Below, piece after piece: positions 857 through 4,692 of a stretch of DNA of 8,268 nucleotides. Under the pieces are notes generated by a model. That model searched no databases. It saw only the letters and a list, made by a program, of their open reading frames with translations, and had not been told where the DNA came from. Positions within the stretch are counted from its first letter, which is position 1. Each line of letters begins with the position of its first letter. The position numbers were made by a program, and so were the translations under genes. The stretch comes from a virus: positions 1 to 8,268 of the IMG/VR virus record IMGVR_UViG_3300036767_000929. One strand, given 5' to 3'.

Positions 857-2206
857 ATGGCACGGTACGAAAATAAGAAACCTAACCGCTCTGGTTCAGT
901 GTTTACTAATGATCGGGGCTCTATCATTTCTGACTTATCATCAGTCCGTTTTCTTTTCCGTGGTGTCGATACTATTCGACAGTTGTATAACTGCTCTGTA
1001 CGACCTGAGATCTTTGACGCAGTGACTAACCACTGGGAAACCGCAAAAGATGACGTGATTATCCTGCAAGGCATGGAGTTCAAGCTTTCATCGTCGGGTA
1101 AGGCGGCCGGGTATAAGTACATCCTCAAAAATCTGGAAGCGGGCGTTATCGTTCTGTTCAAGTCCATGTACTGTGAGGCTGACAAGCAAGGGCCACACAT
1201 CAAGATAGAGGCAACGCCTCAACTGATTCAGGAACTCGGGTTACAGAAGCTGACCAATTACCTGAGACAAGTCGCGTCGATCTTTGCTGACACTCTTGAG
1301 GCCTCTGGCGTCGCTGTTCATCTGGCCTGTGACTTTAAAGGCTGGGAACCTCCCCAGGACTTTGAATCCAGTCTTGTTACCCGCTCTAAGCGAAATCTTC
1401 GGGTGAATGCGTTAACCGCTGCCCACAATCAATCAGTCTCTGAAGTTGCCTTGGTCTATGGTCAGGGCCAGACATACATGTTCGGTGAGTCGGGATCTCT
1501 CCAGTTCTGCCTGTATGAAAAGAGTGCTGAAGCCATCAAGTCCCGTAAGCTCGAGTTCTGCGAATCGCTATGGTCGCAAGTGCCCTCGGTCGATGATCCC
1601 AGCAAGCCAGAATACAACGACGGTTCAGACGGTACGGAAGCAGATACGGTCAGAAGGGTAGAGTTCAGGATTCACCAGAGTGTTATCAAAGAATTCGAAC
1701 ATGGCCATTTTAACGTAACTCAGCAACTCGACGAAAAGGGCAACATAGTTTCGCCGGGGGAGTTGTGTTGTATTCGAGAAGCGCGTGATCTGATTCCTCA
1801 CCTTCAAGGCCTTTGGGAATACTGCCTCAATAACTTTCGGTATCAGTACAGCACCACCTATGTTCATCCTCTATGGTCCATGCTGTCAGACGATGTTGAG
1901 TGGTTCGGGTTTGCTGAAGGGTGGACGTACAAGCGCAGTCAAAAAAAGTCCGTTGATGGGGTATCCAATCGCAACGTGGCCATGTGGTTGGGCAACTGGC
2001 TCCGGATTGCTGCAGCCAAAGGCTTGAAAACCTCGTTCGTGGTGAACCAGATCATGTCCGCGGGTGCTGATTCCATGGTGGCTGACTATTTCGGAGTAAG
2101 GCTATACGGTAATACCAATGAGGTGGTGTCTCTGCTGACTGAGTTCGTAGAGAAACGCATGAGGGATCATAGGCTGAACGGGGTAGGAGGGCTGAAAGTT
2201 GCGTAA
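857..2206 (+). CDS. Rolling-circle replication initiator (Rep_trans / RstA-like, gpII functional analogue), 449 aa
   Basis: ATG at 857 lies 8 nt after aagga (844-848). It is the first long ORF after the IG region. Motifs recalled from pT181 RepC/RepD-type initiators: VHLACDF (1316-1336, compare R-x-D-x-A-x-D), GESGSLQFCLYEK (putative catalytic Tyr220, codon 1514-1516, compare RIYNK/RIYDK) and RRVEFRIHQS (1652-1681, compare WRVEIELKRD). Confidence 0.78.
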   Translation: MARYENKKPNRSGSVFTNDRGSIISDLSSVRFLFRGVDTIRQLYNCSVRPEIFDAVTNHWETAKDDVIILQGMEFKLSSSGKAAGYKYILKNLEAGVIVLFKSMYCEADKQGPHIKIEATPQLIQELGLQKLTNYLRQVASIFADTLEASGVAVHLACDFKGWEPPQDFESSLVTRSKRNLRVNALTAAHNQSVSEVALVYGQGQTYMFGESGSLQFCLYEKSAEAIKSRKLEFCESLWSQVPSVDDPSKPEYNDGSDGTEADTVRRVEFRIHQSVIKEFEHGHFNVTQQLDEKGNIVSPGELCCIREARDLIPHLQGLWEYCLNNFRYQYSTTYVHPLWSMLSDDVEWFGFAEGWTYKRSQKKSVDGVSNRNVAMWLGNWLRIAAAKGLKTSFVVNQIMSAGADSMVADYFGVRLYGNTNEVVSLLTEFVEKRMRDHRLNGVGGLKVA

Positions 2207-3029
2207 TCTCAGTGATGCTATCCGTCTCTGGTACAAAGTACATGGCCATACCCTGAAGGATGCCAAGTACCGCTTCATGCGTACCTTAGCGATTGCTGAA
2301 CGTATGGATGATCCACTACTCACTGAATTCAGTGCTCGTACGTTTGCCGATTACCGCGCAGATCGGGCGGGTAAGGTAAGCAATGCCACACTGAACCATG
2401 AACTCAGATACCTTAGAGCGGTGTTCTCTGAACTCGTCAGGCTCCAATACCTGACAGAAAACCCACTGGCTCAGGTACGTCAGTTCGCGGTCACGGAAAC
2501 CGAACTCGCCTACCTTGATAAATTCCAGATAGAAACCCTGTTCGCATCGTTGCGGGAAGCAAAGAACCAACACGCCTACTGGGTCGCAAGGATCTGCCTG
2601 AGTACCGGTGCCCGTTGGATTGAAGCGGAAAGCCTGAAGGCCCATCAACTGGTTCAGAAGCCAAAGCCAGGTATCCGGTACGTGAATACAAAGAACGGGA
2701 AGAACCGCTTCGTTCCTGTAGATCCAGTCTTTCTGGCTGAATTGAGAATGGCCACACGGCCAGACAAAGATAAGAAGCTGTTCAAGTCCTGCCGATCGGC
2801 GTTCCGGTATGCGGTAAAGAGGGCGGGGTTAGAGTTTCCAGAACAGCAGATGACCCATATTCTGAGACACACCTACGCCAGTCACTTCCTTATGAACGGC
2901 GGGGATCTCTTCGTACTACAGCGGGTTCTTGGGCATTCGGACATCAAGACAACGATGAGATATAGCCACTTCTCCCCAGATTATCTGGATCAGGCTTCTA
3001 CCTTCGCACCCACTGTTAAAGGAGTTTAA
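2199..3029 (+). CDS. int: Tyrosine recombinase / phage integrase, 276 aa, TTG start
   Basis: Canonical catalytic signature: CLSTGARWIEAESLK (box I Arg), HILRHTYASH (H-x-x-R), LGHSDIKTTMRYSHF (His plus nucleophile Tyr255, codon 2961-2963). AGGAGG at 2185-2190 sits 8 nt before TTG 2199. The first in-frame ATG is at 2277. The catalytic region resembles the P2 Int C-terminal region as I recall it. Confidence 0.93.
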   Translation: MRNLSDAIRLWYKVHGHTLKDAKYRFMRTLAIAERMDDPLLTEFSARTFADYRADRAGKVSNATLNHELRYLRAVFSELVRLQYLTENPLAQVRQFAVTETELAYLDKFQIETLFASLREAKNQHAYWVARICLSTGARWIEAESLKAHQLVQKPKPGIRYVNTKNGKNRFVPVDPVFLAELRMATRPDKDKKLFKSCRSAFRYAVKRAGLEFPEQQMTHILRHTYASHFLMNGGDLFVLQRVLGHSDIKTTMRYSHFSPDYLDQASTFAPTVKGV

Positions 3030-3031
3030 CT

Positions 3032-3253
3032 ATGAATTTATCTATCTCGCTTTCAGAACTAATGGCTCTAGCTCTTCTAGATCCAATTTGTTCAGTTGGT
3101 CTTTATCACGACGATAAGCGCTATTCCGTACCCTGTGGCCTTCTGTATCACGCCGTGAAGGATCTCTCAAGTTACCCTGAAGTATTTTGGCCTCTCCCTG
3201 ATCCCGACTTGCACTTCGAAGTTGTCGAGAGTCTTTCTCAACTCCCTTTCTGA
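3032..3253 (+). CDS. Hypothetical 73-aa protein directly downstream of int
   Basis: ATG 3032 is preceded by aaaggag (3019-3025) and starts 2 nt after the int stop. No recognisable motif. An antisense ORF (3042..3281) overlaps it but starts inside the terminator hairpin. Confidence 0.5.
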   Translation: MNLSISLSELMALALLDPICSVGLYHDDKRYSVPCGLLYHAVKDLSSYPEVFWPLPDPDLHFEVVESLSQLPF

Positions 3254-3257
3254 GTCC

Positions 3258-3284
3258 AAAAAAAAGGATGCCTTTAGGCATCCT
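3258..3284 (-). terminator. Rho-independent terminator for minus-strand transcription
   Basis: 8-bp stem aggatgcc (3265-3272) / ggcatcct (3277-3284), loop ttta. It is preceded on the plus strand by A8 (3258-3265), which gives hairpin plus U-tract on the minus strand. It lies downstream of the minus-strand operon 3983..3405. Confidence 0.75.
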
Positions 3285-3308
3285 CTATCAATAACTGTCG
3301 GCTTGTAC

Positions 3309-3343
3309 AGTAACCGAAGTAACCACTAACACGTAAGTTACTG
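3309..3343. repeat. Short repeats in the attP arm: agtaacc direct repeat (3309-3315, 3319-3325) and cagtaac/gttactg inverted repeat (3308-3314, 3337-3343)
   Basis: Read directly. The direct repeats are 10 bp apart (one helical turn) and next to the tRNA-like core. A role as recombinase or accessory-factor sites is inference only. Confidence 0.35.
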
Positions 3344-3352
3344 AAAAATAAG

Positions 3353-3397
3353 TGGTAGCTATGACTGGACTTGAACCAGTGACCCCAGCATTATGAA
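3353..3397 (-). other. attP core: 3' half of a tRNA (anticodon loop with CAT, variable loop, T-arm, acceptor 3' strand, discriminator A, CCA). Not a complete tRNA gene.
   Basis: The minus strand reads ttcataa-tgctg-gggtc-actgg-ttcaagt-ccagt-catagct-a-cca. The T-stem actgg/ccagt pairs, the T-loop is ttcaagt, and there is a CCA end. It closely parallels the 3' half of elongator tRNA-Met as I recall it. Upstream sequence (gtgtt...) cannot pair with tgctg, and no agctatg acceptor partner exists. Confidence 0.8.
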
Positions 3398-3404
3398 AAC
3401 ACGG

Positions 3405-3644
3405 TTAGATTTCTCCTCTATCCATTGCTTTAAATGCCTGATTCGCGGTTAGTATCTTCTTCTCACTCTTCTTTCTGTCTTCTACTTGGCGTGCTCGTAC
3501 CAATGCTTGATACGCAATTCCGTTGTTGAATGCTATTCCTCCGGATGGCTTCCATCCTTCCATCATGTGAATCTGCACGTCTTTTTCTATCTGCCTGCAT
3601 TCTGCTGTGTCTTTGATCAGCTTGTATTCGTATACTGTCTTCAT
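3405..3644 (-). CDS. DUF1737-like small protein (79 aa), second gene of the immunity operon
   Basis: ATG at 3644-3642 has aagga 8 nt upstream on the minus strand. YEYKLI...IEKDVQIHMMEGWKPSGGIAFNNGIAYQALV matches the DUF1737 pattern I remember (short alpha/beta domain with GW-x-P-x-GG ... YQA). A basic C-terminal tail follows. Confidence 0.6.
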   Translation of the reverse strand: MKTVYEYKLIKDTAECRQIEKDVQIHMMEGWKPSGGIAFNNGIAYQALVRARQVEDRKKSEKKILTANQAFKAMDRGEI

Positions 3645-3713
3645 ATCCTTATTCCTTGAGCTTGAGTCGTTATAGCTTCCAACTGTCCGCGACTCGTTTT
3701 GCCAATCTTCTAC

Positions 3714-3983
3714 CTACGGCGTTTTCTTTAGCTGCCGTTGGGCCTTCTTAGTCATTGGGCTAATTTGCCCAGCTTCTGGTATTTCTTTTCCTGTCGAAAG
3801 CCAATAACCGTATTCCGGCCAGATCTCGGATAGTGCTTCCACTTCAGAAGCTCGCATTTCAACTGTGCCAGCCTTGACCGATCCCCAGCGCCTCCGGCCA
3901 ATACCTGTCTCTTCTTCAAGCCACGGCAGCTTCACTCCCTCTGACTCAAGCAATATCAAAAACCTATCAAGGCAACCTGACAT
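3714..3983 (-). CDS. Phage repressor-like HTH (Cro/CI/XRE-type) protein, 89 aa
   Basis: It is transcribed divergently from the morphogenesis operon, the position of Pf4r/RstR. The segment LEEETGIGRRRWGSVKAGTVEMRASEVEALSEIWPEYGYWLSTGKE has the helix-turn-helix ... W-L-x-T-G ending typical of CI/Cro-family domains. There is no SD before the ATG. Confidence 0.68.
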   Translation of the reverse strand: MSGCLDRFLILLESEGVKLPWLEEETGIGRRRWGSVKAGTVEMRASEVEALSEIWPEYGYWLSTGKEIPEAGQISPMTKKAQRQLKKTP

Positions 3984-3995
3984 ATAGATAAATAC

Positions 3996-4037
3996 AATGA
4001 CAAATTATTTGTTATCAATTGCAAATAGTTTGTCATT
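3996..4037. promoter_or_regulatory. 42-bp near-perfect palindrome; candidate operator of the repressor
   Basis: The left arm aatgacaaattatttg (3996-4011) matches the reverse complement of caaatagtttgtcatt (4022-4037) at 15 of 16 positions, with a 10-bp spacer. It is centred in the divergent intergenic region. An extra half-site-like copy gtttgtc occurs at 4050-4056, 22 bp after 4028-4034. Confidence 0.6.
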
Positions 4038-4047
4038 CTCCTATTGT
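4019..4047 (+). promoter_or_regulatory. Candidate sigma70 promoter for the rightward (late/morphogenesis) operon
   Basis: TTGCAA (4019-4024), 17-bp spacer, TATTGT (4042-4047). The spacer and -35 overlap the right arm of the palindrome. A candidate leftward promoter is TTGATA (complement of 4013-4018), 18 bp, TATTTA (complement of 3989-3994). Confidence 0.45.
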
Positions 4048-4053
4048 GTGTTT

Positions 4054-4075
4054 GTCCGGTACTGCAATACCGGAT
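4054..4075 (+). other. Stem-loop in the 5' leader of the rightward operon
   Basis: ccggta (4056-4061) pairs with taccgg (4068-4073), loop ctgcaa. The stem is extendable by t4055-a4074 and g4054-t4075. Confidence 0.4.
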
Positions 4076-4147
4076 TGCTGTTAAACGTAACCAACAATCC
4101 TACCCTTAAACGCGATAAGTGTCGCGCGGGTGGCATAGGGGCACATC

Positions 4148-4453
4148 ATGGACGTAAGGCAATTAGTGGACGACATCGCCGGGTCTTCTCCTTTTCCTGA
4201 GCTGTTTACCATCGCCATTCCCTCTGAAGATGCAAAGCGTGAGTTAGTCGCCTGCATCAAAGACCAGTCCGTTATGTATCCCGAAGTCGCTCTTCGCGCC
4301 GCTATCGCGCTCGCCTCTGATCCTGAGTCCTCACTAGATGACGTTATTGAATTCTTATCGGGTGTTCGTCAGGAGCTGAACGCGTTGGGTCTGGAACGTC
4401 TTGGTATTGCTCATTGCGCGGCGGTACCACAAGTAAACACTGGTTCAAGGTGA
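4148..4453 (+). CDS. Hypothetical acidic 101-aa protein, first gene of the rightward operon
   Basis: ATG 4148 lies 6 nt after agggg (4137-4141) in a clean ORF. No motif recognised. Confidence 0.6.
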   Translation: MDVRQLVDDIAGSSPFPELFTIAIPSEDAKRELVACIKDQSVMYPEVALRAAIALASDPESSLDDVIEFLSGVRQELNALGLERLGIAHCAAVPQVNTGSR

Positions 4454-4458
4454 TCTCC

Positions 4459-4692
4459 ATGTCTGTCGCATTGAAGAGTGTTTGCTCTGAAAAATTTATT
4501 TTGTCTTCTATCCGTGACGCCTTTCGGGCTCAGGATCGTACGTGTGTTCGTAAGTACAACACTGTTCTTACTCTAACTGTTCGTATCTCTGGTGATCTGC
4601 CGGAGCTGTTCGTAAAAAACAACGTACTTGATTGCAGAATGACGCTTGCTCAACTGATTCGTTTTTTGGATGGAATCGATCCGAATAAATGA
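4459..4692 (+). CDS. Hypothetical 77-aa protein. The ORF track gives 4414, but ATG 4459 is preferred.
   Basis: ATG 4459 follows aggtg (4446-4450) and avoids overlap with the upstream gene, whose stop is at 4451-4453. No motif recognised. Confidence 0.55.
   Translation: MSVALKSVCSEKFILSSIRDAFRAQDRTCVRKYNTVLTLTVRISGDLPELFVKNNVLDCRMTLAQLIRFLDGIDPNK

Follow-up and report, generated by a model that had tools for sequence, protein, structure and literature searches.

Operator, promoters and leader of a predicted immunity switch in an uncultured marine inovirus

The window analysed here, the whole 8,268 nucleotides of IMG/VR record IMGVR_UViG_3300036767_000929, contains an intergenic region of only 164 bp (3984-4147) between a repressor gene on the minus strand and orf101, the first gene of a rightward operon, on the plus strand. 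The question raised by this locus is how a repressor, its binding sites and two opposing promoters can be fitted into so small a space. A first reading, made from the letters alone and referred to below as the original prediction, described the region as an immunity switch in which a 42-bp palindrome would act as one dimeric operator over back-to-back promoters, with a possibly leaderless repressor mRNA. The homology of the repressor, the operator and a conserved promoter bear out the description of the region as an immunity switch, and the core idea of the original prediction is right; its single dimer, its third operator half-site and its leaderless message are unsupported. The best overall explanation, which we consider quite probable, is a switch with a two-unit operator and a repressor promoter convergent with the rightward one. 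The outcome is a well-supported operator-promoter region, an ordinary phage switch in a new lineage that will not surprise a specialist.

The comparative evidence comes from 28 related loci that we fetched for this purpose. For the 12 closest, the stretch between the repressor start and the opening gene of the rightward operon was aligned, and a wider set of 16 loci (one of them, L004, read by eye) was used for the leftward -10 element; these 12-16 loci belong to marine phages and prophages. A scan of viral contigs with a single protein returned no relative, whereas alignment-based scans did recover relatives.

The repressor and its operator

The repressor gene (3714-3983, minus strand) encodes a protein of 89 amino acids (aa). 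A phmmer search of the PDB with this protein retrieved the solved structures of two repressors of Pseudomonas filamentous phages, Pf6r (1.7e-10) and Pf4r (1.1e-8), and a profile built from 19 homologs retrieved Pf6r (4.7e-18), Pf4r (1.3e-12) and the C repressor of coliphage P2 (2.7e-5); the protein also matches phrog_147. Its AlphaFold model (predicted local distance difference test, pLDDT, of 89) has helices at residues 4-15, 19-26, 30-38, 45-54, 56-64 and 76-86, and the best Foldseek matches of the model are Pf6r, Pf4r and P2 C, with template modelling (TM) scores of 0.75-0.83. Helix 2 (residues 19-26) and recognition helix 3 (residues 30-38) form the predicted helix-turn-helix (HTH). By its sequence and modelled fold the protein is assigned to the Pf4r/Pf6r/P2 C family of repressors, whose members are compact all-helical HTH proteins of about 90-100 aa that use helix 3 for recognition, and by analogy with Pf4r/Pf6r (PMC8402870) and P2 C (PMC2995052) it would be a homodimer that binds as two dimers per operator. 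Its nearest homologs are found in Thalassolituus, Oceanobacter, Oceanospirillales and Cellvibrio genomes and in marine viral contigs. In the protein alignment, 18 of 18 homologs begin at the position of this start codon, and a stop codon lies just upstream in most loci; therefore the ATG at 3983 is the true start.

The inverted repeat described in the original prediction is present. Its arms (3996-4011 and 4022-4037) are complementary at 15 of 16 positions, are separated by a 10-nt spacer and together make up the 42-bp dyad (3996-4037) that constitutes the whole operator region. It is the sole inverted repeat with at least 12 matches in the 8,268 bases, allowing up to one mismatch and a spacer of up to 20 nt. 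The repeat is more than a product of chance, with 15 matches reached in 1 of 2,000 dinucleotide shuffles of the intergenic region (mean best 7.1, standard deviation 1.1) and in none of 30 shuffles of the whole window.

We take the dyad to be the operator of the 89-aa repressor because its arms covary with the DNA-binding domain of that protein and not with the flanking DNA. The inverted layout is kept in all 12 close relatives, and the sequences differ from one relative to another (GACAAA, GACCAA, CCTAAATAC, AATCATTATGATT, ACATAT, GGATAAT and others). Operator identity tracks identity in the DNA-binding domain at the N terminus (Mantel r 0.63, p 0.0002), against values of r of 0.15 for the C-terminal part of the repressor and -0.01 for the adjacent leader. 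Two pairs of loci have nearly identical leaders joined to different operators and domains: L013 and L029 share 98% identity in the leader, 28% in the operator and 36% in the N-terminal domain, and for L007 and L006 the corresponding values are 97%, 41% and 34%. An exchange can also be seen in a metatranscriptome contig of a relative (run X17, 842 nt), which matches 3384-3821 and 4047-4191 of the window and carries 223 other letters in place of exactly 3822-4046. One edge of this cassette lies inside the conserved C-terminal part of the repressor and the other coincides with the end of the -10 hexamer of the rightward promoter; the exchangeable unit is therefore formed by the N-terminal two thirds of the repressor, the operators and the promoter up to its last -10 base. 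The source of the contig is a heteroimmune relative, and the pattern is the one expected of heteroimmune phages. This contig and the other RNA data used here are unstranded, low-depth metatranscriptome contigs from libraries that may contain DNA; they give no transcription starts, strand or levels, and gaps in their coverage of the window should not be read as silence. Thus, both the arms that change in step with the N-terminal domain and the cassette swaps speak strongly for the palindrome as the operator of the repressor.

Four related regions of repressor and operator (L012, L014, L015 and L016), which differ in the operator and have a common leader and first gene, occur in a single cultured strain, Oceanobacter mangrovi SM2-42. 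This strain is a natural polylysogen and could be used for work on heteroimmunity.

The inverted arrangement admits a different interpretation, in which the dyad, a conserved hairpin located downstream of it (4055-4074) or both would be mainly structures of single-stranded DNA (ssDNA), for instance a signal for packaging or an origin for the complementary strand, and not a duplex operator. The virion genome is single-stranded and a 16-bp stem would form in it, the inverted arrangement is constant among the 12 close relatives, and the hairpin covaries and has an invariant TGC in its loop. However, the arms track the DNA-binding domain of the repressor and neither the leader nor the genes for replication or packaging, their position coincides with that of the mapped Pf4r sites (PMC8402870), and the direct repeats present at the same place in Pf4 cannot form a hairpin. 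We consider this interpretation very improbable. Very unlikely too, and speculative, is the idea that the inverted units of this marine clade have been selected to fold as a duplex operator hairpin in the ssDNA of the phage, where a resident repressor could bind the incoming strand and block complementary-strand synthesis, and that the hairpin in the predicted overlap of the two transcripts could serve for recognition between sense and antisense RNA or of a single strand. If true, the ssDNA operator hairpin would give immunity before any double-stranded template existed.

Considered as an operator in duplex DNA, each arm of the repeat contains a dyad of its own. The proximal unit (4000-4012) is a perfect 13-bp palindrome, ACAAAT-T-ATTTGT, centred at 4006, and the distal unit (4021-4033), GCAAAT-A-GTTTGT, is centred at 4027 and has a degenerate inner half that overlaps the -35 hexamer of the rightward promoter. 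The centres are 21 bp, or two helical turns, apart, and by sequence the two units flank or overlap the -35 at 4019-4024. Dyad units of 13 bp separated by 19-21 bp recur in several relatives, with near-perfect palindromes in L005, L006, L026 and L009. In the P2 C family, one dimer spans two consecutive major grooves; P2 C occupies a pair of sites separated by 22 bp, with a dimer bound cooperatively at each, and the sites of P2 Hy dis extend across the -35 (PMC2995052). Pf4r forms two complexes in electrophoretic mobility shift assays (EMSA), and a mutation 18 nt upstream of the pf4r ATG weakens binding while one at 49 nt abolishes it (PMC8402870). In the Pf4-type region that we fetched, the mutated positions fall in two GGGGAAATA repeats, located 16-24 and 44-52 nt from the ATG, and the outer halves of the arms of the present dyad occupy these same positions relative to the repressor ATG.

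Two dimers on two units is a better reading of this operator than the single dimer originally proposed, because each arm has its own 13-bp dyad and because of the precedents of P2 C and Pf4r. A single dimer holding both arms is unlikely, since the arm centres are 26 bp apart, a distance that exceeds the reach of one dimer in the P2 C family (PMC2995052). From sequence and analogy, occupation of the operator by two repressor dimers, and not one, appears likely. Non-palindromic direct repeats are a trait of the P2 C/Pf4r family, but the two units here stand in opposite orientation (15 of 16 matches between the arms) and the proximal one is itself a palindrome. In the Pseudomonas phage PfAC02a, the intergenic region between the repressor and excisionase genes (L032, 1382-1491) contains four copies of a 9-bp palindrome, TACTNAGTA, arranged as two pairs, and direct repeats are therefore not universal among operators of the Pf4r family. 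No second copy of the operator was found elsewhere in the genome, for example before the replication gene; the best other matches have 3 mismatches and are at chance level.

The promoters, the leader and the repressor message

As originally described, the dyad overlaps the -35 and the spacer of a rightward TTGCAA-17-TATTGT promoter (P_R), and this promoter proved to be phylogenetically invariant. Among the 12 relatives, the TTG of the -35 hexamer (TTGCAA, 4019-4024) shows little or no variation, the initial TA and the last T of the -10 hexamer (TATTGT, 4042-4047) are invariant, and the spacing is fixed at 17 nt (TTGnnn-17-TAnnnT), with variable sequence between and around the hexamers. The -10 of P_R is also the only invariant rightward TAnnnT in the 12-sequence alignment. 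The weight that we give to these hexamers comes from their conservation in relatives and not from their match to the consensus. Transcription from P_R is predicted to start near 4054. Another rightward -10-like hexamer, TACAAT (3993-3998), recurs in relatives, but was rejected for lack of a usable -35 upstream, in the coding region. A 67-aa open reading frame (ORF) that lies largely within the intergenic region (3997-4200) was judged by eye to be non-coding.

Very probably, the repressor acts on the two 13-bp units that straddle the -35 of P_R, shutting this promoter off and giving immunity. Repressor dimers would bind to 4000-4012 and 4021-4033 cooperatively and occlude the -35 region. P_R would drive orf101 and, after it on the same strand, the genes for coat, assembly, replication and integrase, and its silencing would turn off the whole rightward operon and result in lysogeny and immunity, from which heteroimmune relatives would escape by virtue of their different operators. 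The term "late operon" used in the original prediction is not appropriate here, since the inovirus has a single rightward operon and not a late one.

The sequence that follows the operator, from 4050 to 4147, has the features of a conserved leader and not of an operator. It begins with GTTTGTC (4050-4056, plus strand), located at the predicted start of the P_R transcript and at the foot of a hairpin. This copy of the arm sequence had been taken for a third half-site, and it is indeed there, but it does not behave as an operator-specific element: the TTGTC(A/C) that it contains is kept in relatives whose operators are quite different (CCTAAATAC, AATCATTATGATT, ACATAT, GATAAT). The hairpin (4055-4074, plus strand) has a stem of 6-8 bp and the loop CTGCAA, with the loop TGC invariant in the family. 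Compensatory changes on both sides are found in six of its six stem pairs, 89% of the cells in the alignment are paired as opposed to 33-49% when the 3' partners are slid, the covariation score was reached in none of 500 shuffles, and this is the sole helix in the RNAalifold consensus for the leader. Rfam returned nothing within 3984-4147. This hairpin might stabilise the 5' end, bind a protein or serve as a signal in single-stranded DNA. Beyond it come further conserved leader motifs (GTTAAAC, GTAACC, CCTAyC) and then another local hairpin and a strong ribosome-binding site. The second hairpin, GC-rich (CGCGAT aagt GTCGCG, 4112-4127, plus strand), stands ahead of the ribosome-binding site of orf101, and relatives have at a similar place a local hairpin of other sequence (by eye). 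This second hairpin would share sequence with the -35 region of the leftward promoter candidate considered below.

Where, then, does the repressor message start? The original prediction was correct in that the repressor ATG (3983-3981) has no Shine-Dalgarno (SD) sequence, being directly preceded on the minus strand by an A/T-rich stretch (3984-3995) that holds the hexamer TATTTA (3994-3989). It combined this hexamer with TTGATA (4018-4013), 18 nt away, into a leftward promoter placed back to back with P_R, the transcript of which would be leaderless, as lambda cI is when made from PRM, and would be autoregulated by one dimer on the 42-bp dyad. Both hexamers exist as described. An SD is also missing upstream of the repressor in all of the approximately 28 relatives and in Pf phages, including the Pf4-type region; the distance from operator to ATG is conserved (13-17 nt); AT immediately precedes the ATG in every close relative; and about 9 of the 12 keep TATTTW in register, with 5 nt between it and the ATG. 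However, the -35 hexamer TTGATA is not conserved among relatives, and the canonical final T of the -10, present in about 4 of them, is absent here. In addition, the perfect proximal unit lies in the spacer of this promoter, so that the repressor would shut itself off at least as easily as it would P_R, and the 26 bp between arm centres tell against its single dimer. Finally, Pf4r has no SD either and yet its start was mapped by 5' rapid amplification of cDNA ends (5'-RACE) 150 nt upstream of the ATG, with a 5' untranslated region that overlaps that of xisF4 (PMC7379572). The missing SD is a family trait and, since an SD-less repressor of this family has a mapped 150-nt leader, it is not a sign of a leaderless message.

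A better conserved candidate for the -10 of the repressor promoter is found much farther from the gene, at TAGGAT (4097-4102, minus strand; ATCCTA on the plus strand). Its T1, A2 and T6 do not vary in the alignment of 12 sequences, where no other leftward TAnnnT is invariant, and in the wider set TAnnnT is present in 16 of 16 loci, with a TGn extension in 10. It ends 111-116 nt before the repressor ATG (91-95 nt in four shorter regions), and about 113 nt before it in the window. A possible -35 (GCGACA, 4120-4125, minus strand) lies beyond a 17-nt spacer and is weak and variable in relatives. From these elements a leftward start is predicted near 4090, which would give the repressor mRNA a leader of about 108 nt and would make its promoter face P_R instead of standing back to back with it.

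RNA libraries also bear on this point. Two contigs identical to the window, from two runs of two studies, cross the repressor ATG (X15, 3884-4075; X16, 3909-4059) and extend 76-92 nt beyond it; exact-match contigs in those two runs lay only within 3385-4255. RNA over 3984-4053 is inconsistent with the back-to-back layout, because starts at 3983 and near 4054 would not yield it, although given the nature of the libraries these contigs are only a hint of a leadered message. Taken with the conservation pattern and the leader of Pf4r, they lead us to regard the back-to-back, leaderless arrangement as unlikely. We rate as quite unlikely a scheme in which the repressor has two promoters used at different stages, a distal one giving a leadered message (from 4102-4097) and a proximal one giving a leaderless message, comparable to PRE and PRM of lambda. 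Both candidate -10 elements show conservation, and an A/U-rich start without an SD would suit either kind of message; but both starts lack direct evidence, the PRE/PRM analogy comes from general knowledge, and the proximal operator unit would occlude the proximal promoter during lysogeny. For the face-to-face layout itself, with starts near 4054 and 4090 and a leadered repressor mRNA, we put the chances at about even.

With the repressor promoter about 110 nt 5' of the ATG and facing P_R, the two transcripts would overlap by some 37 nt, a stretch that contains the covarying hairpin. Active P_R would interfere with the repressor promoter, and repression of P_R would relieve the interference and raise repressor synthesis. 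We liken this model to the Pe/Pc pair of P2 and to the reported auto-activation of Pf4r, which raises its own expression and represses xisF4 (PMC7379572). At high occupancy, repressor bound downstream of its own promoter may limit read-through.

Several points weigh against the switch as we have reconstructed it. The P_R hexamers are weak by consensus, and a scan of 3400-4600 gave no promoter at threshold, with P_R scoring 8/12. The leftward TAnnnT sits in an otherwise conserved leader, so its invariance could serve another function; its candidate -35 is poor and its TGn extension is limited to those 10 loci of the 16. The contigs that cross the ATG have the limits stated above for unstranded, low-depth RNA libraries possibly containing DNA. 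Pf4 and P2 have direct repeats where the present units are inverted, and the mapped starts of Pf4 lie inside the opposing genes, unlike the geometry proposed here. No second regulator similar to Cox or XisF4 was found beside the switch in Pfam, PHROG and NCBIfam searches. For this phage, binding stoichiometry, both transcription starts and the mechanism of interference are inferred.

The phage genome and the neighbouring genes

The IMG/VR record is a complete genome with direct terminal repeats. Its first 127 bases (1-127) are identical to the final 127, and the genome is therefore circular, with about 8.1 kb. By gene content (Zot, DUF2523, coat protein and tyrosine integrase) it is classified as an integrative marine inovirus, and the runs that bear its sequence are seawater and other marine metagenomes. 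A megablast of the whole window against phage records gave no match. The genes include those of a 449-aa phrog_1159 protein (857-2206), a tyrosine integrase (2199-3029) and, on the minus strand, a 79-aa protein (3405-3644), and the plus-strand row from orf101 (4148) onward encodes a phrog_1859 coat protein, a 504-aa protein, a DUF2523 protein and Zot.

The first gene of the repressed operon, orf101 (4148-4453, plus strand), encodes an acidic protein of 101 aa (isoelectric point 4.4). Its SD (GGGG, 4138-4141, plus strand) is separated from the ATG by 6 nt, and relatives retain it as AAGGGG or AAGGAG. The protein has no match in Pfam, PHROG, NCBIfam or the protein atlas, nor any HTH match, and only 7 homologs were found, all close (77-100% identical). 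It fills the slot that in Pf phages belongs to the excisionase/activator XisF4, and relatives carry other first genes in that slot, many of them with a PPIPxQxEL motif. As to how the switch would be flipped, the Pfam, PHROG and NCBIfam searches found no counterpart of Cox or XisF4.

To the left of the repressor, Rfam gives a tRNA match below threshold (23 bits) on the minus strand at 3356-3429, and at 3397 contigs from RNA libraries diverge from the window into tRNA-like sequence, with very high depth at 3313-3588. ARAGORN predicted no tRNA. An attP in the stretch 3306-3429, copying the 3' part of a host tRNA gene, would fit these observations. In contigs from RNA libraries that belong to relatives, 3017-3256 or 3017-3305 is swapped for 92 or 145 other letters, and the 73-aa ORF located 3' of the integrase gene (3032-3253) is therefore a variable slot.

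Comparison with known immunity switches

The locus extends the Pf4r/P2 C type of switch from Pseudomonas phages and coliphages to uncultured marine inoviruses with hosts of the Oceanospirillales type (Thalassolituus, Oceanobacter). Its promoter scaffold, which does not vary, combined with cassettes of repressor domain and operator that can be exchanged, should help to annotate the immunity regions of inoviruses and to predict heteroimmunity groups.

In lambda, as here, divergent repressor and lytic genes share an operator region (OR, between PRM and PR) and the repressor gene lacks an SD; the cI message of lambda is leaderless. The differences are that the lambda repressor belongs to another family, that the present repressor has no cleavable C-terminal domain, and that there are two sites here and not three; furthermore, evidence for a start at the ATG is absent here, where the data lean towards a leadered message, and the two promoters are probably face to face. 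CTXphi, an inovirus, has in RstR an immunity repressor divergent from the replication/structural operon across ig-2 and PrstA, with exchange of heteroimmune cassettes, and in these respects it is like the present locus. RstR itself was absent among the sequence (phmmer, family profile) and fold (Foldseek) matches of the repressor.

The immunity region of P2 (C, O1/O2, Pe/Pc) differs in that its operators are non-palindromic direct repeats, in that C has Cox as partner repressor and in that P2 is a tailed double-stranded DNA phage. It is alike in the fold of the repressor, the sequence being distantly related, and in having a pair of sites separated by two helical turns (P2, 22 bp; present locus, 21 bp), each with its own dimer, as would be the case here. 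In both, the pair of sites reaches across a core element of the early promoter; this is the -35 in P2 Hy dis, as it is here. The promoters of P2 converge (PMC2995052), as those of the present locus would if the conserved leftward -10 is used.

The closest counterpart by repressor sequence is the pf4r-xisF4 region of Pf4, together with Pf6r. There, the binding sites are direct repeats, GGGGAAATA, whereas the units here are inverted and each is a dyad; the first rightward gene encodes the excisionase/activator XisF4, whereas here it encodes an acidic protein of 101 aa that matches nothing, and the searches brought up no excisionase; and the mapped starts lie inside the opposing genes, whereas both conserved promoters here, the leftward one a candidate, are intergenic. 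The leader with its TTGTC element and hairpin is absent from the Pf regions examined. Despite these differences, both are integrative inoviruses with homologous repressors encoded on the strand opposite to the structural operon, and in both the repressor ATG lacks an SD and follows an A/T-rich stretch of the atag(a/g)a(a/t)a type. The binding determinants of Pf4r lie approximately 16-24 and 44-52 nt 5' of the ATG, and the corresponding elements of the marine phage are found at almost the same distances, 13-28 and 39-54 nt.

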